Shown here: one piece after another, positions 1 through 16,916 of the stretch | How the letters are laid out: the number at the start of each line of letters is the position of its first letter | Numbering within the stretch: position 1 is the stretch's first letter | Source of the DNA: Chloroherpetonaceae bacterium | GTDB lineage: Bacteria; Bacteroidota; Chlorobiia; Chlorobiales; Chloroherpetonaceae | Assembly: GCA_028277445.1 (NCBI GenBank) | Contig: JANQGG010000064.1 | Coordinates: forward strand, 3,124-67,123 | Direction: 5' to 3' | Length of the DNA: 64,000 nt | Position numbers and translations under genes: made by a program | Notes under the pieces: model-generated | Database searches by the model: none | What the model saw: only the letters and a program-made list of their open reading frames with translations | What the model was told of the DNA's origin: nothing

Positions 1-2135
1 TCGTTGATCGATGGTTTATGATGCCCGTTGCCATTTCCGTTAGTATGGGCTTCTTCCGATTGCGCGTTGTCGTTCAACAAGTCCATTGAAGCGGCACGCT
101 CTTTAATATCAAGCAGCAATTCATCAGAAGGGTGTTTTTGATATGCTTCAATCATATCTTTTATTTGTCGCAAGTCTTTATATAGACCAGCTTTTTCAAG
201 CGGCGGCGCCATATAGCTAACAATAGTTGCGCTGCTTCGGCGTTTGGCTATAGTTGCTTCGCTGGGGTTATTGACGCAATAGTAATAAACATTAGGAAGG
301 TGACCCAAAAGCCTTGTTGGCCAGCACGATGCGCTTAAACCGTTTTGCTTACCGGGCATGAACTCCAAAGCGCCGTGCGTGCCGAAGTGCAAAACCACAT
401 CCGATTTGTATTGATGGTTCAACCAGGTATAAAACGCGGCAAAGCCATGATGAGGCGCCGCATCTTTTGCCATGAGCAAACGCATCGGATCGCGTTCGTA
501 TCCAAAACTGGGTTGCTGGCCAATGAATACATTTCCAAAGGAGCATCCAAGGATATAAAATCTTTCGCCATCCGTGAGCAAGTCGCCAGGCGCATTTCCC
601 CAATACGGTTCAATTTCGTGATAATCAGGGAAATGTTTTTTGTAATCGTTTAGGGGCAGAAAGTCCTGAACATTTCCATTGGTTCCGAAAGTATTGTGAT
701 TGCCATTTATAATGGCCTCTCTGAGGTCTTCAGGGCTTGAAGGGACATTCACCGTGTAGCCCTGATTTTTTAGTTCCGAAAGCAACCGATGCAAGCTGGA
801 AAACACATCCAGGTAAGCCGCTGTTCCAATATTGCCAAGATTGGGTGGAAAATTAAATAAGACTATGGCTAATTTTTTCTCAGCGTTGGATTTGCGGTGT
901 AGTTTCACACGTTGGTAAATCCGTTTTACCGCAAGCTCTATTTCTTCTTTAATGGGTTCTATTCGCTCTAATGATGAACCGGGTCCCCCATAAATCCTGG
1001 GTTCAGTGGCGCCATCCAGTTCAGGAATGGCAATGCTTAAGGCCAATTGAACCGGCGAAAGTCCCATCGGATCGTCTTTCCATTCGTGTGTTCGTTGAAA
1101 TGCCAATGGGATCATTTCCATGTATGATACGCCCAAATCTTTCAGAACCTCCTTGGCTTCGTCCGCCCTGCTTTCTGCAGGGCCGCCAACCAGGGAAAAT
1201 CCGGTGGCATTTATGAGCACATCAATACCTAGTTTTTTGGCGTTTTTATACCCGCTTTCAGATAAATCCGCTTTGAAAAATTGCGCAATTGCCGGCCGGA
1301 AATCCAGCCCGCCCGAATAAGCCACACAAACTTCTAATCCTTTGGATTCAAGAGAATAAACCAGGTTTGAAAGATGCTTGGTATTGCCGCCTAAAATGGA
1401 AGCCCTCATTGAGAGAATAGCAACACGTCCTTCATTTAAAGACAACCCACGCGATTTCTGCCATTTGTTATAATCTGCTATTGTATCAAAATGGGTTTCC
1501 GATTCAGGATGATAAATTGCCGTTTCGGGATAGAAAAGCGGATCTTTTACCGGTAATTTCCCTTTATACTCCGGTATGTAATGATCAACAAAAAACATGA
1601 TCATCCGTGAAATGTTTTCATAAGAGCCGTTTAACCAATATTGATGAGCGGCAATAAATGCATAGATGTCTTTTGCTTTGCCAGGTATCATTTTTAAAAC
1701 CTTGGTCAGGTTTCTAACAATACCCAATTGTCGTTGGCTTTCGCCATGCCCATGTTTTGGTTTCAATCGCCCCATTAATTTTTTAATGGGGTTTGAGCTT
1801 TCTTCCTGCTCGGGTTTATTAAGAACAAAGCGTCCTAAGCGCGTTTGTTTAATCAGGGCAGGGTTGCTGGTGATAATACAAACCGGGCATGTGGCCGTTT
1901 GCAACTGTGTTTCAAGTGGACGGACAACATCTTCACTAAAAAGCATTGAGCCGAAAATAAAATCAGCTTCGGAAATGTCTTTGGCTAACTTATCCCAATC
2001 GTTTTGAGAGCGCAATAACGAAACATTATAGAGCTTTAAATCTATACCGAGATCAAACTGGGCATTTAATGCCTTAACAGCTTGATGAAGCGCCATGTTA
2101 TTGGTCACTTCCATCGTTAAAAAAATAAATCGCAT
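1..2135 (-). CDS. bchH: Magnesium chelatase H subunit (BchH/ChlH-CobN family), N-terminal ~711 codons; the 3' end lies beyond the left window edge
   Basis: Absent from the ORF track because it has no stop inside the window. Hand translation of the minus strand from the ATG at 2135 (AGGAGG just upstream) gives an uninterrupted frame MRFIFLTMEVTNN... It is collinear with the paralog at 4441..8265: IPGKAKD..YW, HFGTHGALEFMPGKQ vs HMGMHGTVEWMPGLQ, NNPSEATIAKRR vs NNPSEANIAKRR. Confidence 0.85.
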   Translation of the reverse strand, partial: MRFIFLTMEVTNNMALHQAVKALNAQFDLGIDLKLYNVSLLRSQNDWDKLAKDISEADFIFGSMLFSEDVVRPLETQLQTATCPVCIITSNPALIKQTRLGRFVLNKPEQEESSNPIKKLMGRLKPKHGHGESQRQLGIVRNLTKVLKMIPGKAKDIYAFIAAHQYWLNGSYENISRMIMFFVDHYIPEYKGKLPVKDPLFYPETAIYHPESETHFDTIADYNKWQKSRGLSLNEGRVAILSMRASILGGNTKHLSNLVYSLESKGLEVCVAYSGGLDFRPAIAQFFKADLSESGYKNAKKLGIDVLINATGFSLVGGPAESRADEAKEVLKDLGVSYMEMIPLAFQRTHEWKDDPMGLSPVQLALSIAIPELDGATEPRIYGGPGSSLERIEPIKEEIELAVKRIYQRVKLHRKSNAEKKLAIVLFNFPPNLGNIGTAAYLDVFSSLHRLLSELKNQGYTVNVPSSPEDLREAIINGNHNTFGTNGNVQDFLPLNDYKKHFPDYHEIEPYWGNAPGDLLTDGERFYILGCSFGNVFIGQQPSFGYERDPMRLLMAKDAAPHHGFAAFYTWLNHQYKSDVVLHFGTHGALEFMPGKQNGLSASCWPTRLLGHLPNVYYYCVNNPSEATIAKRRSSATIVSYMAPPLEKAGLYKDLRQIKDMIEAYQKHPSDELLLDIKERAASMDLLNDNAQSEEAHTNGNGNGHHKPSIN

Positions 2136-2220
2136 ATGTCCTCCTTTATACAAGTTGATCCAAAGTTTTTATAAAAAATTCGCTATGAACTCAAAGCGCA
2201 TGTGATTCTTCTTTTTCAAG

Positions 2221-2252
2221 AAAAATCAAAACAGCAAAACAAGATGTTTTGC
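2221..2252 (-). terminator. Hairpin plus U-tract between the small ORF (stop 2264) and the bchH start (2135); candidate terminator or attenuator
   Basis: Minus strand reads GCAAAACA-TCT-TGTTTTGC followed by TGTTTTGATTTTT. The stem is 8 bp and AU-rich. Confidence 0.4.
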
Positions 2253-2263
2253 GGCTCAATGGA

Positions 2264-2755
2264 TCAAATCAAAAGAGGTAAACTTAAAGCGTGTAAATGT
2301 GAAGTTTGGTTGCTGGTTATGTTGCGGGGAAACAAAACAATTGGTTGCGAAGGTCTGGAAAAAAACTCGGTTGGGGTGAGAAATGGCGAACAACTGATTG
2401 AAAATAAAGACGGATGTTTTAATGAACTCAACAGTGCAGGTCGGTCGATTTCTTCATCGGAAGACTCAATATCCTTTTTTTGAACGCTACCATGTGAAGT
2501 GGATACAAAAACACCTGAAATAATTCTTGGAGGCGCAATAAGATGTGCATGCGATTGAAGAGGAACCAAACGCACAATTTCATTTTGTGTGCGATAGTCT
2601 TTCCCTTTCGCAGATATTGAAGAAGGCGCCTTGGCAAATCCTGTAGAACCAAGAACAGAAATCAAGAAAAAGATATAAACCTCAACTATTCGCCAGAATT
2701 CCCGAGCAACCTTATTTATATTTGTGCCTGCCTTCATGATGATAAGTAATCTCAA
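2264..2755 (-). CDS. Hypothetical small single-pass membrane protein, paralog A of a two-member family in this window
   Basis: 163-codon open frame in AT-rich DNA. One predicted TM helix (VEVYIFFLISVLGSTGF). Homologous along its whole length to ORF 12986..13375 (FWRIVEVYIFF / FWRLVEVYLFL; both end in PLLI). Several shared residues use different synonymous codons, which favours a protein over an RNA. Confidence 0.55.
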   Translation of the reverse strand: MRLLIIMKAGTNINKVAREFWRIVEVYIFFLISVLGSTGFAKAPSSISAKGKDYRTQNEIVRLVPLQSHAHLIAPPRIISGVFVSTSHGSVQKKDIESSDEEIDRPALLSSLKHPSLFSISCSPFLTPTEFFSRPSQPIVLFPRNITSNQTSHLHALSLPLLI

Positions 2756-3050
2756 AATCGAGAATATGTAAAACTAATCAAACATTTGCTTTATAAACAA
2801 TACAAAATACAAAGCCCTGCATCCTAACGATAAAGATAGTGTTATACAAGACTGCTTGAAAATTTAATGGATATGCTTTTACAAAATTGTACAACGATGA
2901 TAAGTTATAGATTTATAATCTGTTATACATAATAACGACTTTTACAACGGAATAATCTTATGTACGATTTATTTTTAAGGGCTTAACAAAAAAACGTTTT
3001 ATCGATTTCTCTTGATGAGTTGCATTCCTTGGATTACTATGATGCTTAGT

Positions 3051-4241
3051 CTAAAAAGTTTTGGCTCGTTCGGCCTGGCTCTTTGATCGTGATACACAAT
3101 CTTCAATGGCCATTCCTCCATAATAATTACCGGTTAGCAAAAGTTTTTGCCCATCAAGAAGTTGATTGACTTTTTTAAGCCACTCATTATGGCCGACTCT
3201 TAACGATGGCACGGTATTTTGGATTTCATAATGATGGATAATTTTATCCTCGGAAATACCTAGCACATCGGTTATGCGCTCGGTTTTTGTTTGCGGACTT
3301 ACGCCGGATTTAAAATGAAATGCAAAACCACGATACGTTGTATCAGGGACAGTATCTCTTGATACCGCTGAAAAGAAACTATCGTTGGGTGAAATAATAG
3401 CGGCAACTGGTTTTAGCGATAACTGGTCTTTCTTAACAACAACACCTACAGAATCAACTGTAGCAGATTTAAGTATGCTAAGATGATCGGCAAGTTCTGT
3501 ATTTATGTTTTGAAGGAGATTTGCCGAAATTGCAGAAGGCGTTGCCAAAGCAAGTATCGGCGCCGTATAAGAATCGCCATTAGCAGTTCTTAATTGGTAT
3601 TCATCGCCGCTTTTTTCGATGCCGGCAACCTCCTGAGAAGTTTGTATGGCAATGTCTTTATTTTTTGCAATGGCTTGGGCTACGGATTGTAATCCGTTTT
3701 TAAAGGTGTAATTTTTCAGAACTTCTTTTCGCTTTGAACGCGATTTAAACATGATATCTGCCGGAAAGTCATCGGTGGGTTGAGAAGGTACGGCATTAAA
3801 GAAGTGGCTGAGGGCATTCGCGTAATTGTTCTTTCCAACAATTTGAGAATAGTATTCACGAACGGTTAAACCGTCTTTCTTGAGCGAAAAAACTTTCGGG
3901 ATTGATACCAACGCCTCAAATAGGTTTAGCACAGAAAAAACCGATTTAAGCTCCCGGTCAACCATTAAGGTGAAGGGGACTTTTGCTCTGGGTATAATTT
4001 CGCTGGAAATACCGCAGGCATCTACAATATCCAGTAGATTTTGATACGAATTATAACAAGTATGCGCGCCTAGTTCCAACCAGAAGCTTGAGCCGTTTTC
4101 GGAATATGGGTGAGATACAAATGAACCGCCAACACTGCTGTTTTTTTCGAGTAGGGTTGTTTTTAATCCGGCCTGAGAGCAATAATGCGCAAGACTCAGT
4201 CCACTAATACCGCCACCTACAATAACAACATCACTTTTCAT
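3051..4241 (-). CDS. FAD-dependent oxidoreductase, protoporphyrinogen oxidase (HemY)-like
   Basis: N-terminal dinucleotide fold DVVIVGGGISGLSLAHY...LLEKNSSVGG. C-terminal GNYYGGMAIEDCVSRS resembles the HemY/amine-oxidase family C-terminus. Shorter (396 aa) than typical HemY. Sits between two bchH paralogs. Confidence 0.6.
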   Translation of the reverse strand: MKSDVVIVGGGISGLSLAHYCSQAGLKTTLLEKNSSVGGSFVSHPYSENGSSFWLELGAHTCYNSYQNLLDIVDACGISSEIIPRAKVPFTLMVDRELKSVFSVLNLFEALVSIPKVFSLKKDGLTVREYYSQIVGKNNYANALSHFFNAVPSQPTDDFPADIMFKSRSKRKEVLKNYTFKNGLQSVAQAIAKNKDIAIQTSQEVAGIEKSGDEYQLRTANGDSYTAPILALATPSAISANLLQNINTELADHLSILKSATVDSVGVVVKKDQLSLKPVAAIISPNDSFFSAVSRDTVPDTTYRGFAFHFKSGVSPQTKTERITDVLGISEDKIIHHYEIQNTVPSLRVGHNEWLKKVNQLLDGQKLLLTGNYYGGMAIEDCVSRSKSQAERAKTF

Positions 4242-4440
4242 TGAATTTTGTTTTGAATACTTTTTGAATATTTCCGGGAAATTCTATGAAACTTCTTTAG
4301 CTACCATCTAATATGCCCGGGGTGTTTGTGTCATTAAATAATTAAGAACGAAGCAAGTTCGGCGTCAGGGAAATGATTACAGCACATTATTTCCCTGGAC
4401 ACCGATAAACATTTTGAGGATTTTTAAATCAAACATATGT

Positions 4441-7400
4441 TTAATTCACTTCTATACCTTCAAGCTTATCTTCCAAATCAGAATAGATTTCCTGAAGTTT
4501 ATCGATAGTATCCTGATCAGCTTGCCACATGCCACGACCGGAAGCTTCTAGCATACGGCCAACAATATTTTTCATCGCTTCAGGATTAGCTTTGGATAAC
4601 TTTTCACGCATTTTCGGATCAAAGGCGTAAGTTTCCGCCGCTTTTTCATAAACCCAGTCATCCACACTTTTTGAAACCGCATCCCAACCCAGCATATAAG
4701 TAAATCGATTGCTGATTTCCGTAGCGCCACTATGGCCTTGCGAGATCATGCTTTCATACCATTTTGGATTCAGCAATTTGGATCGGTATTCAACTCTCAA
4801 GGTTTTATCCACATCATCCACTTTAACATCGGCGGTAAAAGACTCAACATAGTTGAGCTTAACGCCGGTACCTTTTTTATTGTGCATACGCGCCGAAAGC
4901 TGAAGCGAACCCGATGAGGAGAAGTAGCGGTCGATATCGGATATGCCGAATTCAGCCGAATCCACTTGTTGAACGACACGATCTACCGTACCCATAAGTC
5001 CTTTCAGAATATCAGTTTCCTGAGCGCCATTCCGGTTGCCGCCATATGCAAAACTGGTTCTGCGAATGAACATATTGTCCAGATCTTCTTCAGATTCCCA
5101 GGACGAGTCTTCAACCATTTCATCAACAAAACTGCCGTAATTGCCTTGCGCTTGTGTGAAGATACGCGATGTGGCGCTCTCAAACGATTTACCTTCTGCC
5201 ATGGCTTCATCGACATGTTTTTTGATGAAGTTCATCTCATGCGGTTCATCGGCCTTTGCAGCGGAGACCACCAAACGATCCAAAAGATCAAGCAGGTTTC
5301 CAAAGTTATCACGGAAAATGGAGCTGACTTGCATGAGCACGTCAATTCGTGGTCGTTTAAGCTTGTCTAATGGAATAAGCTCATAATGGCTGATTTTTCC
5401 TTGGGCATCGTACGCCGGTTTAGCGCCGATGAGCTTAATTACAATCGCTACCGACTCCCCTTTGGTTTTGATGGTATCCAGTCCCCAAAGCACTTGGGCA
5501 ATGGTTTCGGGATACTCACCGCCGGACTCAGCCAAATGACGTTCGATAATGGTATCGGCAATTTGTGAGCCGCGTGTATTGGCAACTTCGGAAGGAATGC
5601 GCCATGGATCGATGGAATGAATGTTTCGACCGGTTGGAAGAATATTCAACCCATCACGAATAAGGTCGCCACCCGGCCCTGCCGGCAAATATTGACCTTG
5701 CAAGGTATTGATGAGCGAATCCATTTCGCCGGTGTTGTTTTTCATGGAGCGAACCATTTCGCGTCCGGTGTGCAAACTATCATCCAAATGTTTGGCCATA
5801 TCTTCGGAAATCGTGACCTGATCGGTAAGTTTGTTGAAGATTTCGCGCGGGTGTTTTCGATCAAAAATACAGGCCTCAACAAAAGTTTTGCAGGCGTCAT
5901 CAACTTTTTCACGCAATACCATAGCGCTTTGATCGCCCTGACGAGCAGTAGCCGCTAATTCGGTATAACCCTGATACTTAGCGCCCTCTTCAAGTGATTT
6001 AAGGAAAATCGATGGCAGAGAATGGCCGTTTCCTCTTAATTTTAGTGTTTCAACAACAGTCGTGATCTGTTCTTCAACCGGAACCGTGTTGCCGAAAACA
6101 TGCATTTCGCTGCTGATCAGGCGATTTTCCAGATCCATCAAGTACATGTAAAGACGGCTTAAATAGTCGGCAAAGGATTCTCCGTCAATTCTTGGGCAAT
6201 CGTCATTAAGATTAAGCTGGGCAACTTTTTCGGTAATGGCTTCTTCGATTTCCGGATTTGAAGTTTCAGCCTCGCCCAAGCCCCGCTCACGATAATCGTT
6301 GATCATATCTTTTAGCGCGGGCAGCTCTTTATACAAGCCAGCGCGTGAAAGTGGCGGGACGGCATGTGAGATCATGGTGGCATACCCGCGTCGTTTGGCA
6401 ATATTGGCTTCGCTGGGGTTATTGACCGGATAGAGGTAAACATGCGGCGTTTCTCCAAGCAACGCATCCGGCCAGCACTCTGAAGTGAGTCCGAGCTGCA
6501 GACCTGGCATCCATTCTACCGTTCCATGCATACCCATGTGGATAGTGCAATCAGCCTGGAATTTTCGGCTGATCCAACGATAGAAGGCCATGTATTGATG
6601 GTGAGGGCAGTTCTCTTTATCGAAAAGGAGTCGCATTGGATCGCCCTGAACGCCAAGCCGCGGTTGAACGCCGATATAAACATTGCCGAAAGTGATCCCG
6701 CCGATATAGACTTTGTCTTCAGCAGCCGGAGCAATATCACCCGGGAACGATTCCCATCGGGTATTGATTAATTCACGTTCGTTATCGGATGTCAGCAACT
6801 CAAAATCTTCTTTACTAACACAAATCGCATCCGAGGAGTTGTATTGTGTTTGAAAGTCTGTGGCCTGATTCAACATATTATAAAGGTCTTCGGATGTTTC
6901 AGGCAAATTTCCCACGTAATAACCTTCCGACTTCAACTTGCGAAGGATTTCCAACAAGCTTTTTGGAACATCAAGCAAAGCGGCGCTGGCTTTACGTCCC
7001 AATCCCGGCGGGTAATCATAAACCACAAAGGCTAATTTTTTCTCGCTATTTGCTTTGCGGCGCAAGTTTGTCCAACCTTTGGCAAGCGTTGCCAAACGAT
7101 TCAAACGATCAGGAACACTGGTGATCCGTCCATTATGCCCGGCGCCTAAAACCAGCGGGCAAATAGCGCCATCCATTTCAGGCATGGAATAAAGCATTGC
7201 CGATTGAAGCGGCGTAACGCCATGTTGTTTCCAAGACTCCATATCCTGAATAAACAACGGTTGAGCTACAATGTAGGGGACATCCAAAGCGCTCAGAATT
7301 TCATCACGAGCTTCAGCAGATGTACCTGGCGTGGTTGATCCTGCCGGACCGCCGATCAAGCCAAATCCCATCATATTGATGAGCAAGTCAAGTTTTTCTT

Positions 7401-8265
7401 TGGTAAACCAATCGCGAACAACCACGTGGCCTTCAACACCCATTACAAAAACCGGTAAAACATAAAGCCCGGCATTTTCTAAAGCGTGTATGGTATTATC
7501 TATATATGCTTTTTCCTGCAGGAGGTGTTTTCTGAAGAAAAGCAACCCGATATGAGGCGCGGTCTTCGGATTGTTTTTAGCAGATGTTAAACGCTTTTTT
7601 TGCCATTTGTTATAATGAGCAGCATCTGCAAAATAATCTTCAGCGTCGGGATGGTAGAATCCCATGGTTGGAACTTCTTCAACAGATTTTACTTTAACAT
7701 TGACTTCAAAGTATTCTTTGAGGATTAAGCGGAACATATTGGTGAGGTTCTCGGCTGTCGGATGAAGCCAATACGAATACACCAGCATCCAGTTTTTGAA
7801 GTCTTTTGCCTTTTTTGGGATTAAAGGCAACATGGTGCGCATAATCTTCAGCAGCTTCACATACCCGTAAAGGGCATCTTCATCGCGGCCTTTAACGAGC
7901 AGCTTGGCAACTTTTTTAACGATATCCGGCATCCCACCGCCTTCAGCATTGGGATTGTAGGTTCCGACTTTAGTCATGCCCATAACTTCAGGCATCGACT
8001 CGTAAGAGAAAATGGTTTTAATTTTCGATTTATTTACACACTCCTGAAGCCAGTCGGACTGGTGTTTGAATTGAATGAGCGTTAAAAATAAACAATCCGC
8101 TTTTTCTAGGGCTTTTGCCAAGTCCTGGTTTTGTTGCTCCAAATCCAAATCGGACCATTCTTCAAGTTCAGCCACATCTGATAAGCTTTGTCTGACATCT
8201 TGCCAAACCCTTCTGTTGTATTGATCCATACCCAGTATGGCTACAATTCTTTTCTTGTCGTTCAT
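4441..8265 (-). CDS. Magnesium chelatase H-subunit family protein (BchH/BchS/BchT-type paralog, CobN superfamily)
   Basis: 1274 aa, the size and collinear motifs of BchH/ChlH (MGMHGTVEWMPG, NNPSEANIAKRRGYATMISH). AGGAG upstream of the ATG. Confidence 0.9.
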   Translation of the reverse strand: MNDKKRIVAILGMDQYNRRVWQDVRQSLSDVAELEEWSDLDLEQQNQDLAKALEKADCLFLTLIQFKHQSDWLQECVNKSKIKTIFSYESMPEVMGMTKVGTYNPNAEGGGMPDIVKKVAKLLVKGRDEDALYGYVKLLKIMRTMLPLIPKKAKDFKNWMLVYSYWLHPTAENLTNMFRLILKEYFEVNVKVKSVEEVPTMGFYHPDAEDYFADAAHYNKWQKKRLTSAKNNPKTAPHIGLLFFRKHLLQEKAYIDNTIHALENAGLYVLPVFVMGVEGHVVVRDWFTKEKLDLLINMMGFGLIGGPAGSTTPGTSAEARDEILSALDVPYIVAQPLFIQDMESWKQHGVTPLQSAMLYSMPEMDGAICPLVLGAGHNGRITSVPDRLNRLATLAKGWTNLRRKANSEKKLAFVVYDYPPGLGRKASAALLDVPKSLLEILRKLKSEGYYVGNLPETSEDLYNMLNQATDFQTQYNSSDAICVSKEDFELLTSDNERELINTRWESFPGDIAPAAEDKVYIGGITFGNVYIGVQPRLGVQGDPMRLLFDKENCPHHQYMAFYRWISRKFQADCTIHMGMHGTVEWMPGLQLGLTSECWPDALLGETPHVYLYPVNNPSEANIAKRRGYATMISHAVPPLSRAGLYKELPALKDMINDYRERGLGEAETSNPEIEEAITEKVAQLNLNDDCPRIDGESFADYLSRLYMYLMDLENRLISSEMHVFGNTVPVEEQITTVVETLKLRGNGHSLPSIFLKSLEEGAKYQGYTELAATARQGDQSAMVLREKVDDACKTFVEACIFDRKHPREIFNKLTDQVTISEDMAKHLDDSLHTGREMVRSMKNNTGEMDSLINTLQGQYLPAGPGGDLIRDGLNILPTGRNIHSIDPWRIPSEVANTRGSQIADTIIERHLAESGGEYPETIAQVLWGLDTIKTKGESVAIVIKLIGAKPAYDAQGKISHYELIPLDKLKRPRIDVLMQVSSIFRDNFGNLLDLLDRLVVSAAKADEPHEMNFIKKHVDEAMAEGKSFESATSRIFTQAQGNYGSFVDEMVEDSSWESEEDLDNMFIRRTSFAYGGNRNGAQETDILKGLMGTVDRVVQQVDSAEFGISDIDRYFSSSGSLQLSARMHNKKGTGVKLNYVESFTADVKVDDVDKTLRVEYRSKLLNPKWYESMISQGHSGATEISNRFTYMLGWDAVSKSVDDWVYEKAAETYAFDPKMREKLSKANPEAMKNIVGRMLEASGRGMWQADQDTIDKLQEIYSDLEDKLEGIEVN

Positions 8266-8385
8266 CCGTTTGTGTCTCCTTTAGCGCTGAAGGTGTTTTT
8301 TAGTTAAACCGTTTTCTCTATGTGAAACCCTTATAAATATTAGGGTATTGGTTATGAGATTGAGAGATAAATTTGAAAATCAAAA

Positions 8386-9153
8386 TTAGGTTTCGTGATA
8401 GATTTTATGCTTATGCATAGACGAAACTCTACAAATTCGGTTTAAGTTTTTAACGGCCACTTCTAATTTGTTGAATGGAAATGCCAGCATTAACTCATTA
8501 TCGCTAAAAACCATGCCTGTATTGCCGCCGATATCCCCTAAAGTAAAAGCCGGCTTATCGGTTTTATAAACATAACTTGAAACCATTTCGCAGGTTGAAC
8601 CACCCGCTATGCCTGAAATAAACTCACCCGTATCAAAACCATAGGAACGCAGAATTCGTTGTCCTTGGGCCGGTGTGCAAATGATAAAAACCAAATCTGG
8701 AAGTAATTCAGGCATCTTCATTTTTTCCAGGGGACCAATAATTTGCGCTTCAAACTCCCCGTCTTCAAAAGGAAGCGTGGTTTCTAAAGCGCATTTTAAT
8801 CCTTCCATAGTCCCATAAATCTTACCATCCCCAATCATGAATTTTTCGGCAATCTCAATTGGCATGGTACTTCCGAAACCCGCCGCTATTGAACCTCCTC
8901 CGCAAATTTGTTGAGATTTTATGGTGTAAAACGGCTCGGCACCGTTGAACGCATCACCCCACATTGCGCACAATAAGGATTTATCTTCACCCTTTCCGGC
9001 TTGATCGCCAAAGCGTTTAATACCTTTTGGCAGATCCGATAAAGTTTTTACAAACTTAATACCAATGGGTTTTCGCTCAAGTTTTTCAATTTTACACAAT
9101 GTTGATGATAACTCCTCAGGCGACATACTCAACTCAGGTGATAATTTACTCAT
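8386..9153 (-). CDS. DUF169 (COG2043) family protein
   Basis: 255 aa with the pattern I associate with DUF169: PIGIKF near the N-terminus, C..GG..AAGFG, PLEK...PDLVFIICTPAQGQRILRS, and a late GGSTC / GDIGG...DNELMLAFP segment. Confidence 0.65.
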   Translation of the reverse strand: MSKLSPELSMSPEELSSTLCKIEKLERKPIGIKFVKTLSDLPKGIKRFGDQAGKGEDKSLLCAMWGDAFNGAEPFYTIKSQQICGGGSIAAGFGSTMPIEIAEKFMIGDGKIYGTMEGLKCALETTLPFEDGEFEAQIIGPLEKMKMPELLPDLVFIICTPAQGQRILRSYGFDTGEFISGIAGGSTCEMVSSYVYKTDKPAFTLGDIGGNTGMVFSDNELMLAFPFNKLEVAVKNLNRICRVSSMHKHKIYHET

Positions 9154-9244
9154 GAACCAAAAAAGAGCAATCCTTACCCTTTTGGTGTTTCAATCTAAAA
9201 TAGATTGTAAAAGTCTTTATTTAGCAAAATGTAAAAAAGCGATA

Positions 9245-11722
9245 TCAGTAAGCATATTCCAACCCAAAGTGGAAACTACGACCAGGCGAACGATAATGCT
9301 CAAGTTCTTCATATTGAACATTGCCCACGTTTTTTATGGCTGCTGATAAAGTTATCGCATCCATAAAACTGTAATTGGCAGATGCATTCCATACAAAAAA
9401 TCCACCGGGGTACTCATCTCCTTGCGGATTGGCATACATTCTGACGGTTTTGATTTTACTAACATATCTGCCGCTCACCATCAATTTTGCAATATCATCC
9501 AATAAAGTATAACCACCTCTAAAGCTGAATGAGTGTTCTGGACGGTACGATAACCAGTCTTTATCTTCTTCAGGATTCATATTCCCGCCTAACATTGTGG
9601 ATCGTTCTGAAGTAAGATCTTTAGCGTTCATGTAATTATAACCGAAATTAATGAACAATTGATCCATTGGATGAATGTCAACCGATGTTTCAAAACCAAT
9701 GATACGTGCCTCAGCCACATTTTTAAATTGAAAAATTACAGATGAGACATCACTGGCTAAAGCATGGGGATTAATATTTTCAGCTTCGATTAAATCTTTG
9801 TAGAAGTTGTAATATGCAGAGATGTCTAACGAAAGGTATTTTGAGAAACTCTTAAACATACCCACTTCCACGCTGGTCATGCGTTCAGCTTTGATCTCCG
9901 TATTTGGAATGCCTCTGAAAAATCCGGCTTCGGTAACAAAGCGCTCTGCAAGCGTAGGCGCTCTCATACTTTGGCCAAACGATGCACGGAAAGAAGTTTC
10001 TGGATTAAGCAGATAGGTTATAGCAGCCCTTGGGCTAAACTGCCATAATGTTTGGTATTTAATACTTCCAGTTTTAGAAGAATAAATGGGTTGAAATGTT
10101 ATAGGATCTACGCCAATTGCATCCAAGTAATTCGTATAAGTAACTTCTGATCGATCAATATGATCCAAATCAAAACGAGCGCCGAAGCTTAAGCGGATTT
10201 GTTCATTGAGTTTAAAATCGTCTTGAGCAAATATACCAAAAGCTTGTGCGGTATTGTCGTAATACATGGTTGATTTTACATCATCGTATTGTACATCAAA
10301 GCCTGTGGTTAAACGATGCCCTTTGGAGAACCAGTTAAACTGCATACCAACTCCATATCGGCGTGCATCAGAATCATTATATGTGGAAGGATCATCCGGA
10401 TCATAAACCCCACGTTTACCGGCTGAGTATTGTTGATAATTCCCAATCACGTTATCCTGACCATCATATAAATTAAATGCCTCATCAAATTCAGGATAAT
10501 ATTTTATTACAAATGAAGATCGGTTGAAAAATGCACGGCTTTCCAAACTCGAGGTATTGCTTATTGTCCATACATGCTTCAAGCCAACCATTTGCATGGA
10601 ATTGTCTTTGATATCATCATATTGGTAGTTACCGGGAACAGGGTCTGCAAGAGCATTGTATTCGTTACGCCATGGGTATGGGATACCTCCTGTCACATAG
10701 GTTAAAATTCCCGATAACTGTAAGAATTGAGTTCCGGATAATGAATAGCGAGCTTTTACCTTAATATCATTACTTTCCATTTGTGCGGATTGTCGGTACC
10801 CATCATCTTCAGAATGAGAGTAAAAAACATTATAATTGAGATTGCCAATGACGTTACTGTGAGATATGTTGGCACTGTAAAAATAAGGTGTTTTATCGCC
10901 GGGATACACTTCAGTATTTACTTCATCACTTGGCGGGGTATCGTAAAAACCATTTGAAAACTTTGCTTTAAATGTAAATTCATTAGGCAAAGCAGCGACA
11001 GCTTGAATAACTCCGCCCATAGCTCCAGCGCCATATAATGCTGAAGATGAGCCTTTTACCACTTCAATTCTCTCAACAGCGTCCATTGATACCATAGACC
11101 AGTAAATAGAACCGGCATCAGGCGCATTTAACGGGTAGCCGTCATACAATAACAAAACGCGTGTTCCTAATCCACCACCCGAGAATGTGTTGGATCCTCT
11201 AATTTGGACTGAACTTGTACCATATCCGCCAGATCTTACCAGATCAACTCCGGGTACACTTTCCAAAACCTGATCTAATTGTTTGATAGGTTCAGCGTCA
11301 ATGGTTTTCATGGATAAAATACTCGTGGTAATCGGAACTTCTGCTCTTTTCTGTTCATACCTGGAAGCCGATATTACAACTTCTGAGCCCATGATACTAC
11401 CCTGGATCAAAGAAACATTAATAGCTTGAGAGTTATTCGGATCAACTTTAACAGTTTTTGTGACGTTTTTGTAGCCAATAGCAGAGATACGAACCTTATG
11501 TTTACCAACCGGAACATTTTTTATGATAAACTCTCCATCTATGCCTGAAACTGCTCCAAGGGTCGTTTCTTGTATGATAATCGTTGCCCCTGGAAGAGAC
11601 TCGTTCGTTTTAGCATCTTTAACAATGCCTTTAATTACGGATTTCTCTTTATCGGATGATCCTAAGAGAGTTGAGGGAATGCTTAATATCATTAAAACCA
11701 ATATGGTGTAATATCTTTTCAT
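9245..11722 (-). CDS. TonB-dependent outer-membrane receptor with N-terminal carboxypeptidase-regulatory-like domain
   Basis: Signal peptide MKRYYTILVLMILSIPS. IKGIVKDAKTNESLPGATIII (CarboxypepD_reg-like), then plug and barrel motifs (IEVVKGSSSALYGAGAMGGVI). Aromatic C-terminus ...FGLEYAY. Start moved to the ATG at 11722 (GGAG upstream) rather than the TTG at 11755. Confidence 0.9.
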   Translation of the reverse strand: MKRYYTILVLMILSIPSTLLGSSDKEKSVIKGIVKDAKTNESLPGATIIIQETTLGAVSGIDGEFIIKNVPVGKHKVRISAIGYKNVTKTVKVDPNNSQAINVSLIQGSIMGSEVVISASRYEQKRAEVPITTSILSMKTIDAEPIKQLDQVLESVPGVDLVRSGGYGTSSVQIRGSNTFSGGGLGTRVLLLYDGYPLNAPDAGSIYWSMVSMDAVERIEVVKGSSSALYGAGAMGGVIQAVAALPNEFTFKAKFSNGFYDTPPSDEVNTEVYPGDKTPYFYSANISHSNVIGNLNYNVFYSHSEDDGYRQSAQMESNDIKVKARYSLSGTQFLQLSGILTYVTGGIPYPWRNEYNALADPVPGNYQYDDIKDNSMQMVGLKHVWTISNTSSLESRAFFNRSSFVIKYYPEFDEAFNLYDGQDNVIGNYQQYSAGKRGVYDPDDPSTYNDSDARRYGVGMQFNWFSKGHRLTTGFDVQYDDVKSTMYYDNTAQAFGIFAQDDFKLNEQIRLSFGARFDLDHIDRSEVTYTNYLDAIGVDPITFQPIYSSKTGSIKYQTLWQFSPRAAITYLLNPETSFRASFGQSMRAPTLAERFVTEAGFFRGIPNTEIKAERMTSVEVGMFKSFSKYLSLDISAYYNFYKDLIEAENINPHALASDVSSVIFQFKNVAEARIIGFETSVDIHPMDQLFINFGYNYMNAKDLTSERSTMLGGNMNPEEDKDWLSYRPEHSFSFRGGYTLLDDIAKLMVSGRYVSKIKTVRMYANPQGDEYPGGFFVWNASANYSFMDAITLSAAIKNVGNVQYEELEHYRSPGRSFHFGLEYAY

Positions 11723-11801
11723 ATCCTGCTCCACAATTTTTCTGGCTGTTACCAAATTATTTTTGGGGCAGAAATGCTCTGCCCCAAAGTGCGATTAAAA
11801 C

Positions 11802-12833
11802 TTATGGTAAGGTTACATCTGCGTGCCAAAACAACATCGGATTGGCACCATCTAAAGTAAATGACTTTTTATCCTGGTTTGAGATATAAGTATCTAATGG
11901 TGGGTCATTTGGATAAGAAAATGCCCCAGTTGGCTCAAAAATATCAACCAACAATAATTTGTAATCACCAAATGAAACACCCGGTTGTGGGCCAAAGGAA
12001 AAACCAGTGCTATCAACAAAAGCTATCATATTAACACCAGGTTCTGTAGGTGCTGAGATCATTTGATAGATACTAGGCGCTGCTTCTGGATCAAATGGGT
12101 TAGCTGTAAATCTTGCAATTACGCTATCTTTGTTATCCAAGTGCTTGTAGCCTACAAGTCCTATAAATTTTCCGCCTGTTGGCCATTTCGATACATTATC
12201 TACGGTTAAGGTTCCACAAATTGTACCGGCATTTGTAGTATCAGGATTTGAGCTTCGTTTAATAGCATGTGCCATATTAATACCTGCAGCGACATCACAG
12301 ATCATGTCAACATTTTCAACAGCGCCACCGCTCACGGTAACAGGAGTGCCAAAATTCCATTTTGTTGGATCGCCCCAATGGCCAATACCAACAGTTTTTC
12401 TAAATCCATTAGGATCAAGAATATTTTCGTAGGTTGGTGCAATTAAGTATGTGCCATCAGCTATACCTTCGAATTTATAATTCCATTTTCCATTGGTTAA
12501 ACCTGAAAACTCTATACCGGTACCATGACCTAATGCTGGCAGACCATCAACCGGGCCACCTGTCGCCATACCGTCAGGATTTGCTGGCATTAAAGCTATT
12601 CGGAAATATCCCGGAATTGAGTCACTTGTTGATGAGCTATGAGGCCAATGAGCAGAGTCAATAGGTGCGCCATTATATGTAAATGTTAAAGTGCCGCTGA
12701 TAGAATTTGTTTTATCCCCGGAGTCACCCCCATTGTCATCATCATCACATGCGGTCATATTGAAAGCAAACAGAACCACAAACAAAGCCATTAGTTGGCG
12801 AAGCATTATGCTTTTTAATTTTTTTGTGTTCAT
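11802..12833 (-). CDS. Lipoprotein of unknown function, probably surface-exposed; two internally repeated beta-sandwich-like halves
   Basis: Lipobox FNMTAC followed by the acidic run DDDDNGGDSGD. Repeated ISGTLTFTYNG / ICGTLTVDNVS segments. Ends 46 nt upstream of the TonB receptor ORF, 79 nt from its preferred start. Confidence 0.7.
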   Translation of the reverse strand: MNTKKLKSIMLRQLMALFVVLFAFNMTACDDDDNGGDSGDKTNSISGTLTFTYNGAPIDSAHWPHSSSTSDSIPGYFRIALMPANPDGMATGGPVDGLPALGHGTGIEFSGLTNGKWNYKFEGIADGTYLIAPTYENILDPNGFRKTVGIGHWGDPTKWNFGTPVTVSGGAVENVDMICDVAAGINMAHAIKRSSNPDTTNAGTICGTLTVDNVSKWPTGGKFIGLVGYKHLDNKDSVIARFTANPFDPEAAPSIYQMISAPTEPGVNMIAFVDSTGFSFGPQPGVSFGDYKLLLVDIFEPTGAFSYPNDPPLDTYISNQDKKSFTLDGANPMLFWHADVTLP

Positions 12834-12985
12834 AGTTAAACGGTGTTTTTAGGTTTGTAAAGAATTGCGTTCAAATTAGAATGCAATGCATCGTATAAAA
12901 AAATTGATTTGGCCAGTGGCCATGAAAAGAACATGAGTTCATAATAATTTTTGAAAACAATAAGAAAACAGAATGGGAGAGTAGT

Positions 12986-13375
12986 TTAAATCAGTAAAGG
13001 GGCGGAAATTTGAGACAAGTTAAAAGCTGTATGATTATTACAATCAGAAGGTAGTAAAACAGAGCGTTGAACGATAAATTTAGAAAATAAGGGCTTTGCG
13101 TGAAGTATGTGGGAAGAGTTGAAAGCTGATTTTTTTACCGAAACATTTTTGTGAGAAACCTCCGAGAATTGCTCATAAAATGAAAAAGATAATGCTTTTG
13201 GCGATTGCTTTGAAACTAATATCCTTACCGGATCGTTTTTAGAGTAGTTCTTTGCAAACGTTGAGCTTTTTATGAATCCATGCCCTCCGGATACGGAGAA
13301 GATTAAAAATAAATAAACCTCAACGAGACGCCAAAATTTCTTTGTTATCGAGCTTATGTTTTGTTCAATAAGCAT
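12986..13375 (-). CDS. Hypothetical small single-pass membrane protein, paralog B (see 2264..2755)
   Basis: 129-codon frame. TM helix VEVYLFLIFSVSGGHGF. Same N-terminal, central (SH..V..KK...SS) and C-terminal (PLLI) blocks as paralog A. Confidence 0.55.
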   Translation of the reverse strand: MLIEQNISSITKKFWRLVEVYLFLIFSVSGGHGFIKSSTFAKNYSKNDPVRILVSKQSPKALSFSFYEQFSEVSHKNVSVKKSAFNSSHILHAKPLFSKFIVQRSVLLPSDCNNHTAFNLSQISAPLLI

Positions 13376-13644
13376 TCTACATCGATAAGTTAAATCACTT
13401 CGTTGTATTTAATTCCTTTATCAAGTACAAGTATATAATTACAGGCAGAATAAGTGCTAAAATATAGTTATTAACTTTTCATTAAAAACGTATTTAATCA
13501 TATCCACCCAACCCGATTAAATTATATAAGCCATTTTTCGGAAACAACATATATCAAATATCGGCCAGAACGTCTTGAAGATGACCGTGCTTTAGAAAAA
13601 GATTTCCAGTCTTCTATTTGTATGATTTGCAAATTGCATGTGAT

Positions 13645-14904
13645 TTAAATAACGCCTAATGCTTTACCGCTTTTTTCAAATTCGGTGACAATTTTATCCA
13701 AATGCCAATCTTCATGCGTGCTCATATAGCTTGTTCTAAGCATTTCATAGCCAGGCATAACACCTGGACGAACAAACGCATTGACAAAAACTCCGGCGTC
13801 ATACAACTTTCTCCAAAAAACCAGCGTTTTTTCCTGATCGCCAATAATCACAGAAACAATGGCTGTTTTTGAGTCCATTAATTTAAATCCGAGAGATTTA
13901 AGACCTTGACGAACCCGATCGGCGTTTTGAAGCAATTTTGTAATACGTTCAGGTTCCAGTTGCATGATTTCAAGCGCTTTCAAGGCTGAAGCAACACTAG
14001 CCGGCGTTGGCGAAGCGCTAAAAATCAAAGCCGGTGCATGGTGTTTAAGATAATTGATAACCGAACGTTTTCCGGCAACAAATCCGCCAAGAGAAGCAAA
14101 TGTTTTTGAAAATGTGCCCATGGTAAGATCGATCTCATTGACCAAATCAAATTCGGAAGCCGTGCCACGGCCATATTTGCCAATAACACCAACAGAGTGA
14201 GCGTCATCAACTAAAATTCGTGCGTTATATTTTTTGGCGAGTCTGTTGAGTTCGGGCAGATCAACAATTTCACCTGAAACTGAAAAAACGCCGTCGGTAG
14301 CAATCAATTTTGCCGCGTCGTATGGGATTTTTTGCAGAACACGTTCCAAATCGGCCATGTCATTATGGCGATAACGCTCCAGGTTTGCCATGCCGCCTTT
14401 CGACATCAAACTTGCGACCACAAGACAAGCGTGGTTATCGCGATCACTGATGATGTATTCACCACGTTGGACAAGTGTTGGAATAACGCCTTGTCCGGTT
14501 TGATATCCGGTACTGAAAAGTAAAACGTCTTCCGTGCCAAAAAACTTGGCAAGTTTTTCTTCCAATTCAATATGTAAATCTACGGTACCTGTTAAATATC
14601 TGGAACCCGAACAGCTTGTTCCATACTGGTTAATTGCGTCTATAGCGGCTTGTTTTACTCGAGGGTCGCCTGTCAATCCAAGATAATTGTTTGAACCGGC
14701 CATAATAACTTCGTGGCCTTCAATAGAAACTACCGGGCCTTCATTTTCTTCAACCGGTCTGAAATAAGGATAAACGCCTTGTTTCTTTACTTCGTCGGCT
14801 GTTGTAAAATCGTAACACTTTTGGAATAGATCCTTTGGTTTAGGGATAGTATCATTAGAGGACTGTGCAATCTCTAGCGCATCGTTTTTTTCGGTCGTGC
14901 TCAT
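13645..14904 (-). CDS. PLP-dependent alpha-oxoamine synthase, serine palmitoyltransferase-like (Kbl/BioF family)
   Basis: [11 protein letters not shown]..., [36 protein letters not shown] (PLP lysine), IFSASPTPA. The N-terminal YPYFR motif resembles Bacteroides Spt as I recall it. Confidence 0.7.
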
Positions 14905-15203
14905 ATTTTCTGGTTCTTACTGTTTTTAAAATTCATTTTGAGCATAAATTTCAAAGATACATTATTCTGTTTTGTTTCAAAACCACTTTACCCTGAATAT
15001 TGCAGATTTTAATCCCACGCCCTTTTTTGGTTGACTTTTTTTTCAGATGTAATGTATCTGATTTCAAAGAGTTAGCTGTAATATTGTAATCGGTTCATAT
15101 TTTTAGTGAGTTAACTAAAAATAGTTATATCTTTAGGCATTTTCATTTGACATCAAAAACTTGTAAGATTTTATTTCAATTCTAATAGAAAAAAACCATA
15201 AAC

Positions 15204-16223
15204 ATGTCAGATACCGCATTAATAACCGGGGCAACCGGATTTATCGGAAGCTGGTTAGCTGAAACCTTAATAGAGAAAGGTTATAAAGTAATTGCCCTTA
15301 TCCGGCAGACGAGTAATAAAGCAAATTTAAACCATTTAAATGTAGAGTACAGGGTTGCTGATTTTAAGGACATTAATTCGCTAAAAAAAGCTGTTGAAGG
15401 CGTTGATTACGTGTATCATGTCGCTGGTGTTACAAAATCCAAAACCGAGTTGGGATATATTGATGGCAATGTTCGTGCTACGGAGAATTTGCTGAAGGCA
15501 ACTTATGAAGCAAATTTGGGTATCAAACGTTTTTTGCATGTTTCCTCTTTGGCAGCAGTTGGGCCGGCTAGCTCGGCAGACAAACCTGTGGATGAAAAAA
15601 CAACGGCCAAACCGGTTACCATGTATGGCAGTTCCAAAAATATTTCGGAGCAAGCTTGTCAACGCTTCATTTATGTACCTACTGCCAAAGTAACAACCAA
15701 ACTTCCGGTTACAATCGTCAGGCCGCCGGCTGTTTACGGACCCCGGGATAAAGATATCCTGGAATTTTTTATCACGGTTAATAAAGGTATTATGCCGATT
15801 GTTGGTAGCGGTAATAAGCTGATCAGCTTAATTCATGTGAAAGATTTAGTGGATGGTATTATTGCGGCAGCCGAATCAGGAGAAAGTAAAGGGCAAACCT
15901 ACTTTATTTCTTCAGAAAAATTCTATACTTGGCAGGAAATTGGCGAGATCACCAAGAATGCACTTGGGAAAAAATCGGTGTTTAAACTGACTATTCCGCA
16001 TTTTGTGGTATCCATTGTGGCAGCGCTATCGGAAATGTCTAATAAATCCAGCCCCACTCCGCCTCCGCTTAATCGTGAGAAGGTCAAAGATATTGTTCAG
16101 GATTATTGGATATGTACGGCTGAAAAAGCCCGAAATGAACTTGGGTTTAAAGAAAAGATCGGTATAGAAGAAGGTATTCAAGAAACTGTTAGCTGGTACA
16201 AAGAAAAGGGCTGGTTAAAATAA
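15204..16223 (+). CDS. NAD(P)-dependent epimerase/dehydratase-family SDR
   Basis: LITGATGFIGSWL Rossmann motif and YGSSK catalytic motif. Divergent from the Spt-like gene. Confidence 0.8.
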   Translation: MSDTALITGATGFIGSWLAETLIEKGYKVIALIRQTSNKANLNHLNVEYRVADFKDINSLKKAVEGVDYVYHVAGVTKSKTELGYIDGNVRATENLLKATYEANLGIKRFLHVSSLAAVGPASSADKPVDEKTTAKPVTMYGSSKNISEQACQRFIYVPTAKVTTKLPVTIVRPPAVYGPRDKDILEFFITVNKGIMPIVGSGNKLISLIHVKDLVDGIIAAAESGESKGQTYFISSEKFYTWQEIGEITKNALGKKSVFKLTIPHFVVSIVAALSEMSNKSSPTPPPLNREKVKDIVQDYWICTAEKARNELGFKEKIGIEEGIQETVSWYKEKGWLK

Positions 16224-16844: not shown

Positions 16845-16916
16845 AATTTCAATATTTAATTAACTAACATAGTCATGAATACCCACATAATTAGTTTGCA
16901 TAAACACAACATTTAC

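Follow-up and report, generated by a model that had tools for sequence, protein, structure and literature searches.

A green sulfur Mg-chelatase cluster in a variant arrangement beside an apparently independent lipoprotein and TonB receptor module

Background

In the green sulfur bacterium C. tepidum, CT1957 is bchH, which encodes the H subunit of magnesium chelatase (Mg-chelatase), and its two remaining paralogs are CT1955 and CT1295 (PMC9316378; PMC3595025). Two of the three stand together in the order CT1955-CT1956-CT1957 (seen in the Chlorobaculum locus L024), with a small open reading frame (ORF) between the paralogs and bchM after them; upstream lie an epimerase gene, a gene resembling serine palmitoyltransferase (SPT) and a TonB receptor gene, and the third paralog is elsewhere in the genome (L007). 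The literature disagrees on which of CT1955 and CT1295 is bchS and which is bchT, with one paper giving CT1955 as bchT; in the original C. tepidum naming, as we take it, CT1955 was bchS. Here we describe the same cluster in a variant, lineage-specific arrangement, found in a 64,000-nucleotide stretch of contig JANQGG010000064.1 of a Chloroherpetonaceae bacterium (GCA_028277445.1), a stretch that we call the window. The same two BchH paralogs occur there in the same order beside the same upstream neighbours, together with a HemY-like flavoprotein, a DUF169 protein and a surface lipoprotein next to the receptor.

A second described system resembles the window in outline. The hmuYRSTUV locus of Bacteroides and Porphyromonas likewise has a co-oriented lipoprotein, TonB receptor and chelatase-superfamily protein, and the window comes from a relative of Bacteroidota. 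The hallmarks of HmuS, the chelatase-superfamily member of that locus, include a Met-rich insertion, Met-79 and His-254 as haem ligands, and the hmuYRSTUV context itself (PMC12583661). An earlier reading of the window made from its letters alone (the sequence-only reading) had proposed that its genes could couple import or salvage of tetrapyrroles with (de)chelation in the manner of hmuY-hmuR-hmuS. The analysis presented here leaves that proposal unsupported, and we consider it likely instead that the region is a standard green sulfur Mg-chelatase cluster beside an anciently linked, apparently independent outer-membrane uptake module.

The core of the cluster is made up of two BchH paralogs, one of CT1955 type and one of CT1957 type, and a small membrane protein that resembles CT1956; in relatives bchM comes next. 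Two further genes have moved in: one for a HemY-like protoporphyrinogen oxidase, whose product would be the protoporphyrin IX used by the chelatase, and a DUF169 gene, probably co-transcribed with the CT1955-type chelatase. Upstream stands a Bacteroidota-style uptake pair, consisting of a surface lipoprotein and a TonB-dependent receptor. Receptor and chelatase were already neighbours when this lineage and the Chlorobiaceae parted, and as we see it the receptor would be an independent uptake gene whose adjacency reflects inherited gene order, not a shared operon or pathway.

Results and discussion

A conserved block of genes in a green sulfur lineage

Eight consecutive ORFs, all on the minus strand, occupy the region (Table 1). 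The layout described in the sequence-only reading was borne out by the ORF list, coordinates included, and its gene identifications agree with the Pfam and NCBIfam profiles on which all domain assignments in the window are based. The whole block recurs in the same order in five related contigs and, because of this conserved order together with the coding-type pattern of substitutions in both small ORFs, we regard it as more than a chance association. A scan of genomes with the chelatase as query returned 80 loci, every one from Chlorobiales; the closest relative by this protein is an uncultured Chlorobiales metagenome-assembled genome (MAG; locus L006) at 91% protein identity, and the Chlorobiaceae stand at about 67%. 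Elsewhere in the window, the product of one gene matches PsaA/PsaB weakly, which fits a type-I reaction-centre core protein. Because the relatives of the chelatase are all Chlorobiales and because of this PsaA/PsaB-like protein, the source organism is assigned to the green sulfur bacteria, in a Chlorobiales lineage outside the cultured Chlorobiaceae. Among the other loci used for comparison, L004 is a conspecific MAG (GCA_028281125.1) and L084 is C. chlorochromatii.

Compared with the C. tepidum locus, the window lineage has two genes more upstream of the receptor, for the surface lipoprotein and for a second copy of the small membrane protein. An inserted DUF169 separates the receptor from the first chelatase, and the HemY-like gene is likewise inserted between the two chelatases. 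The strong terminator and promoter-like motif that the Chlorobiaceae have between receptor and chelatase (described below) are replaced in the window lineage by DUF169 with weaker hairpins.

Two chelatases of the BchH family

Both chelatase ORFs, here called chelA and chelB, carry the N-terminal DUF3479 domain (PF11965) and the CobN-Mg_chel domain (PF02514). Against TIGR02025, the BchH model, chelA scores 1590.6 bits (cutoff 829), and the truncated chelB, whose full-length ortholog in L006 has about 1311 residues, still passes with 847.6 bits. Among solved structures the chelatase matches ChlH over its full length (789 bits), ahead of CobN (446 bits) and of HmuS (337 bits, in partial stretches). 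The 136 chelatase ORFs from the loci fetched in this analysis, from which alone our neighbour-joining (NJ) trees were built, cluster into two major BchH groups. In the NJ tree of the first group the window-lineage chelA clade, itself with 100% bootstrap, joins the receptor-adjacent Chlorobiaceae paralog, a node that is drawn from tree topology and synteny only and carries no bootstrap value; the third paralog (L007, L068, L083) is separate and a Chloroherpetonaceae group is basal. The second group is the paralog with bchM next downstream, and chelB falls here. bchM follows chelB in L006 and in L024, in the latter with a BchE-like B12-binding radical-SAM gene after it. Because of these tree positions, the downstream bchM and the literature names for CT1955 and CT1957, we assign chelA as the CT1955-type paralog and the gene at the window edge as the CT1957-type BchH proper.

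These family matches identify both proteins as true BchH-family subunits of Mg-chelatase, not HmuS or CobN; BchI and BchD, the partners with which such a subunit would insert Mg2+ into protoporphyrin IX, are not encoded in the window. Relative to HmuS (PDB 9d26; PMC12583661), the window chelatase is BchH-type with DUF3479 and is closer to ChlH. The Met-rich insertion was not found in either protein, the count reaching at most 4 Met per 40 residues in chelA and 3 in chelB. In both the clustering and the NJ tree the two chelatases lie inside the green sulfur BchH/S/T clades, a placement that the sequence-only reading itself had listed among the findings that together would tell against it.

A family of small membrane proteins

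The small ORF between the chelatases (A) and the one at the head of the lipoprotein and receptor genes (B) share an N-terminal motif, FWRxxEVYxFFLxSVxG (FWRxxEVYxFFLxSVLG in A), a predicted transmembrane helix and a C-terminal PLLI. For A the most likely start is ATG 2737, which corrects the 2755 given before. In each of the nine Chlorobiaceae loci examined, chelA and chelB flank an ORF with both end motifs (for example L024, 14102-14515, and L008, 13944-14339), and B is kept in L001, L002, L004 and L006. Differences at the first, second and third codon positions number 7/1/21 in A and 9/8/21 in B. We had also considered that A and B might be a repeated non-coding leader, and rejected this on the codon-position bias and the conservation of the ORFs. 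An exhaustive search of 1.84 billion representative proteins gave nine matches to the family: among them are the cluster of the query itself and a probably spurious protein of 2384 aa (P0215), and the seven that were inspected have the end motifs. By these measures A and B are real proteins, and the small family to which they belong was seen here in Chlorobiales-type loci only, with copy A the equivalent of CT1956 and copy B an extra paralog. We found no published function for the family, and a literature search on the locus tags CT1954-CT1957 returned nothing on the receptor or the small ORF. One role that the protein between the chelatases could have is that of a missing factor that assists or anchors Mg-chelatase.

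Two genes gathered into the cluster

The flavoprotein between the chelatases has the FAD-binding amine-oxidase fold of PgoX/HemY and just exceeds the TIGR00562 cutoff (101.1 bits against 97.85), a marginal pass made up of three separate stretches of the 470-position profile. Its best sequence matches in the PDB are protoporphyrinogen oxidases, mainly over the FAD-binding N-terminus, and with 396 residues it is shorter than both the profile and those enzymes (470-483 aa). PgoX/HemY is an oxygen-dependent oxidase, yet the HemY-like protein here occurs in strict anaerobes. The identification as similar to protoporphyrinogen oxidase, made in the sequence-only reading, stands, and the position of the gene fits a supply of protoporphyrin IX for de novo synthesis. 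The only other amine oxidase in the window, a 497-aa protein at 45027-46520, was considered as an alternative HemY and rejected as CrtD/carotenoid-isomerase-like. In L001 (18489-19006) and L005 (8955-9472), and not in the window, an inserted ParE toxin/antitoxin pair separates the HemY-like gene from the chelatase.

The DUF169 protein matches nearly the whole of PF02596, has no signal peptide, and carries four cysteines (C62, C84, C159 and C188) that are invariant among 34 homologs. Its AF2 model (pTM 0.78) has no fold neighbour in the PDB by Foldseek at E <= 0.001, a sequence search of the PDB gave no match, and a literature search on DUF169 gave incidental mentions only.

Homologs of both genes occur in Chlorobiaceae, Prosthecochloris and Chloroherpeton, at 62-73% identity for the HemY-like protein and 56-79% for DUF169. 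In the chelatase flanks fetched from Chlorobiaceae loci neither gives a tblastn match (E <= 1e-5, at least 40% coverage). The HemY-like gene lies amid unrelated genes in Prosthecochloris and Chloroherpeton, and DUF169 follows a MreB-like gene in one Chlorobiaceae contig and lies amid unrelated genes in one Chloroherpetonaceae contig. Because both sit away from the chelatases in the other families sampled, their presence inside the cluster is a feature of the window lineage, and we regard the two as core Chlorobi genes that appear to have been gathered into the chelatase cluster in this lineage only. Together, the HemY-like oxidase and DUF169 in a Mg-chelatase cluster would be a first genomic hint that the DUF169 protein of green sulfur bacteria belongs with tetrapyrrole metabolism. 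In another MAG (L088, 10001-10771) DUF169 directly follows a bchN-bchB-bchL-PucC-methyltransferase cluster, a second association with bacteriochlorophyll genes.

The receptor beside the CT1955-type chelatase

The longest ORF for the receptor starts at TTG 11755, and the ATG at 11722 chosen in the sequence-only reading yields a normal signal peptide, followed by a CarboxypepD_reg-like domain (PF13715, residues 41-128). The receptors that precede the CT1955-type chelatase in the Chlorobiaceae are its orthologs and form a single family with it, at 36-42% identity, compared with 21% identity to the other receptor in the window. That second TonB receptor (628 aa, 16875-18761, plus strand) is 3.5 kb away and is kept at that position in L001, L004 and L006. 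Of the curated models, that of the vitamin B12 receptor fits it best, at 134 bits and below the cutoff.

The receptor immediately precedes the CT1955-type chelatase in 47 of the 49 Chlorobiaceae loci that have enough upstream sequence, the gap having a median of 160 nt, and the second chelatase lies directly downstream of the first in 52 of 62 loci. A lack of synteny between receptor and chelatase in relatives would have told against the sequence-only reading, and on this point its expectation holds. C. chlorochromatii lacks the receptor, and in the MAGs L017 and L036 it is fragmented, with the chelatase intact in each. Tandem duplicates of the receptor occur in L045 (4368-9795) and L052 (4515-9862), and in Chlorobaculum L024 an inserted gene for an FkbM-type methyltransferase (8900-9592) separates the receptor from the chelatase.

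Every one of the 51 Chlorobiaceae loci that cover the 3' end of the receptor gene has a strong intrinsic terminator 32-77 nt past the stop codon (dG -16 to -30 kcal/mol, then a U-run). In 29 of 34 loci a conserved promoter-like motif, TTAG...TTTATTACATT, precedes the start of chelA by about 60-90 nt; the TTTATTACATT motif also occurs upstream of the SPT-like gene and never upstream of the receptor. On the other side of the receptor, the SPT-like gene is followed by a terminator-like hairpin in 46 of 51 loci, mostly 26-70 nt past its stop. The spacer between receptor and chelatase is fixed because it holds both the terminator and the promoter-like motif. Hence, the Chlorobiaceae receptor looks like a single-gene unit insulated on both sides, and the coupling of lipoprotein and receptor with the chelatase that had been proposed is not supported there, the receptor apparently being transcribed separately between flanking terminators and the chelatase having a promoter-like motif of its own. 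A TonB receptor that is kept beside the CT1955-type chelatase in nearly all Chlorobiaceae and is yet insulated by terminators could be tested in the tractable C. tepidum.

The SPT-like gene and a divergent NAD-dependent epimerase/reductase gene (13645-16223 in the window) adjoin the receptor in all Chlorobiaceae loci; the CT numbers of the receptor and SPT-like genes are assigned here from gene order. From their family matches these two neighbours may be a sphingolipid-synthesis pair. Since they are equally conserved in position and are unrelated to pigments, conserved order alone is weak evidence for shared function.

Clues to the substrate of the receptor

One alternative follows the hmuY-hmuR-hmuS model: the lipoprotein and receptor would import haem or a porphyrin, and DUF169 and the CT1955-type paralog would dechelate or re-metallate it. 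We think this very unlikely. It gains from the adjacency of receptor and chelatase in both the Chlorobiaceae and the window lineage, and from the proposal in the HmuS paper that paralogous members of the chelatase superfamily could act in salvage (PMC12583661). The TonB-hemin model (TIGR01785) is the best NCBIfam model in all five receptors scanned, those of the window and four orthologs, but the scores (202.5 bits for the window, 177-220 for the orthologs) are all below the cutoff of 316.85. Haem receptors of the HemR/ShuA type have a conserved His between the FRAP and NPNL boxes. No His occurs in this loop (FRAPTLAERFV...NPNP) in any of the 18 members of the receptor family. The cluster contains no periplasmic binding protein or ABC importer, with no hmuT/U/V-like gene among the nine co-oriented genes that include the SPT-like one, the lipoprotein does not match HmuY, and in genomes related to the window the genes are separated by terminators, unlike the case of hmuYRSTUV. 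The chelatase, moreover, is orthologous to a BchH paralog that has been treated as a subunit of Mg-chelatase (PMC3595025), has only a weaker and partial match to HmuS with no Met-rich insertion, and is retained where C. chlorochromatii has lost the receptor; the terminators on both sides of the Chlorobiaceae receptor likewise oppose the idea. Import, salvage and dechelation fail every family test that was run, and for this lineage they amount to a low-probability possibility.

A different possibility is that the pair imports a cofactor or metal for the pigment pathway, either cobalamin for the B12-radical-SAM enzymes BchE, BchQ and BchR or an iron chelate, and that selection for co-regulation or co-inheritance has kept it beside the chelatase. 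This too we consider unlikely. The conserved adjacency would fit, as would the plug region of the receptor, which resembles those of BtuB and CirA, and the BchE-like gene just downstream of bchM in Chlorobaculum. A Fur-family regulator and ferritin-like genes follow bchM in L006 (21264-22207), in the region that corresponds to DNA beyond the edge of the window, and links between chelatase and TonB receptor have been speculated on for a different C. tepidum cluster (PMC8620254). Against cobalamin, the TonB-B12 model (TIGR01779) gives 129 bits with a cutoff of 599.7, and the receptor 3.5 kb away is a different and more BtuB-like one. At the Rfam gathering threshold no cobalamin riboswitch was found in the window, where the only match is a tRNA, or in six related loci, which have no match; a permissive Rfam search of positions 1-15300 gave chance-level matches only, with no cobalamin or other riboswitch. 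Regulation by Fur was rejected, the best matches in 45 spacers between the SPT-like and receptor genes agreeing at 10-14 of 19 positions, no better than shuffled sequence (mean about 11). The receptor also lacks the promoter-like motif that precedes chelA.

Exchange of the lipoprotein and receptor as one cassette

The lipoprotein gene is restricted to this lineage. A search of 5.8 billion proteins found only four clusters, from metagenome contigs and one NCBI MAG; in every case the gene immediately precedes this receptor and the gene order is unchanged. It belongs to no Pfam family (E <= 0.01) and no NCBIfam family, and hence has no sequence match to HmuY. An AF2 model from the four-sequence alignment (pLDDT 55, pTM 0.44) was too poor for a fold to be assigned, and Foldseek matched it to nothing but pilins and adhesins, at TM values no higher than about 0.2. 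Following the lipobox cysteine is an acidic run (...NMTAC-DDDDNGG) that we liken to the surface-export signal of Bacteroidota, and the protein is probably exposed on the cell surface.

Comparison with the conspecific MAG L004 shows that the two genes are exchanged together. The flanks of the region have 96.6-97.0% DNA identity, and from 12727, just past the signal peptide of the lipoprotein, to 9126, at the start of DUF169, there are only two short and weak DNA matches. The encoded proteins have 44% identity for the lipoprotein and 49-50% for the receptor. The receptor allele of L004 is 92% identical to that of a different species, L006, and the allele of the window is 78% identical to those of L001 and L005. 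The lipoprotein and receptor therefore move as one unit, which supports a physical partnership between them and a variable, surface-exposed role. The swapped cassette would mark a variable cell-surface site in natural populations of green sulfur bacteria.

In these respects the pair resembles the SusCD-like, BtuB-BtuG and HmuR-HmuY pairs of Bacteroidota. The receptor likewise has an N-terminal CarboxypepD_reg-like domain, with the SusC/RagA model TIGR04056 matching residues 41-250, the lipoprotein is likewise acidic after its lipidated Cys, and both genes are inherited as one cassette. The window receptor differs from SusC/RagA in length (about 825 aa against a 981-position profile) and score (108 bits against a cutoff of 368), and its lipoprotein, unlike the Bacteroidota partners, matches none of SusD, BtuG and HmuY.

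The variability of the cassette raises the alternative that it serves chiefly as a target for phages, bacteriocins or predators, with diversifying selection explaining its behaviour and its position and any nutrient role incidental. There are two deep allele classes, and these have been exchanged between genomes with 97% identical flanks and are common to different species. Between families, the receptor has diverged further (36-42% identity) than its neighbours (67-70%), and the tandem duplicates mentioned above would also fit. Such pressure would account for variability and not for function, however, because receptors under such pressure still import something; and 135 positions of the plug and barrel core are invariant across the receptor family. 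We consider this quite unlikely as the main explanation.

Probable transcription units in the window lineage

The junctions of the window carry several hairpins (Table 1). The one past the chelA stop, which has equivalents with U-rich tails in L001, L002 and L006, is likely the terminator of a DUF169-chelA unit. Between DUF169 and chelA (8266-8385) no significant structure was found, and these two genes are probably co-transcribed. The hairpin between the lipoprotein and receptor genes has an equivalent in both divergent cassette alleles (L001 and L004). In the spacer between receptor and DUF169 there is a hairpin with an A-tract and a T-tract. The window has a weak form of it (z = -1.13), and L001, L004 and L006 have a stronger one, with the whole spacer folding at -24 to -31 kcal/mol; a strict screen found no terminator between receptor and DUF169 in the window lineage, a result that lends something to import followed by dechelation. 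A scan for sigma-70 promoters gave fewer sites than in shuffled sequences and was uninformative. The units that we infer from these junctions are small protein B alone, lipoprotein with receptor, DUF169 with chelA, the HemY-like gene, small protein A, and bchH onward.

Several observations weigh against regarding the uptake module as independent of the chelatase cluster. The closest curated family of the receptor is the haem/haemoglobin receptor subfamily. With the hairpin between receptor and DUF169 weak and no strict terminator there, read-through into DUF169-chelA is possible. DUF169 and the HemY-like gene have moved to this exact spot, as if the locus attracts tetrapyrrole genes. Lastly, the adjacency of receptor and chelatase is kept more often than that of the two chelatases, which would fit some selective link. 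Taken furthest, these observations would make the lipoprotein, the receptor, DUF169 and the CT1955-type paralog one read-through unit, in which a porphyrin-like compound or metal chelate is imported and passed to the cysteine-rich DUF169 and to the chelatase paralog acting as a salvage or re-metallation enzyme. Such a unit would explain why the receptor-chelatase pair is kept more faithfully than the chelatase pair in the Chlorobiaceae, and we consider it highly improbable. A Mg-chelatase cluster with an independent neighbour remains the likely interpretation; if it is right, the value of the locus would lie mostly in annotation, in that the chelatases can be assigned to the CT1955-type and CT1957-type BchH paralogs.

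Table 1. Features of the window, with positions counted from its first nucleotide
Feature	Position	Strand	Basis and remarks
chelB, CT1957-type BchH (Mg-chelatase H subunit), N-terminal 711 residues	2..2135	-	DUF3479 + CobN-Mg_chel; TIGR02025; cut by window edge
Intrinsic-terminator-like hairpin between small ORF A and bchH	2234..2252	-	GCAAAACAUCUUGUUUUGC then U-rich tail; terminator scan; fold of 2136-2270 z = -3.66
Small membrane protein A, CT1956-like, 157 aa	2264..2737	-	Predicted transmembrane helix; from ATG 2737; between chelatases
HemY/PgoX-like flavoprotein, 396 aa, candidate protoporphyrinogen oxidase	3051..4241	-	Amine-oxidase; TIGR00562
Strong GC-rich hairpin about 40 nt past chelA stop	4359..4405	-	Fold z = -2.09
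chelA, CT1955-type BchH paralog, full-length	4441..8265	-	DUF3479 + CobN-Mg_chel; TIGR02025
DUF169 protein, predicted cytoplasmic	8386..9153	-	PF02596, 128.7 bits (gathering score 27), profile positions 2-208 of 209
Replaceable cassette: lipoprotein after signal peptide and whole receptor	9126..12727		Compared with L004 10068-13479
TonB-dependent receptor, Bacteroidota/Chlorobi style	9245..11722	-	CarboxypepD_reg-like + Plug + TonB barrel
Conserved GC-rich hairpin between lipoprotein and receptor genes	11762..11788	-	Fold z = -3.28
Lipoprotein, partner of receptor, lineage-specific	11802..12833	-	Signal peptide, lipobox Cys29, DDDD
Small membrane protein B, paralog of A	12986..13375	-	Head of lipoprotein/receptor unit; DNA and protein motif common with A
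Ninth co-oriented gene, SPT-like alpha-oxoamine synthase	13645..14904	-	

Another feature of the window

Away from the chelatase cluster, a gene at 46742-47788 encodes a protein with helix-turn-helix and B12-binding domains that matches CarH weakly (41.5 bits; the cutoff is 400). The gene that it immediately precedes (48020-50269) is the one with the weak PsaA/PsaB match, which is likely a reaction-centre core gene.

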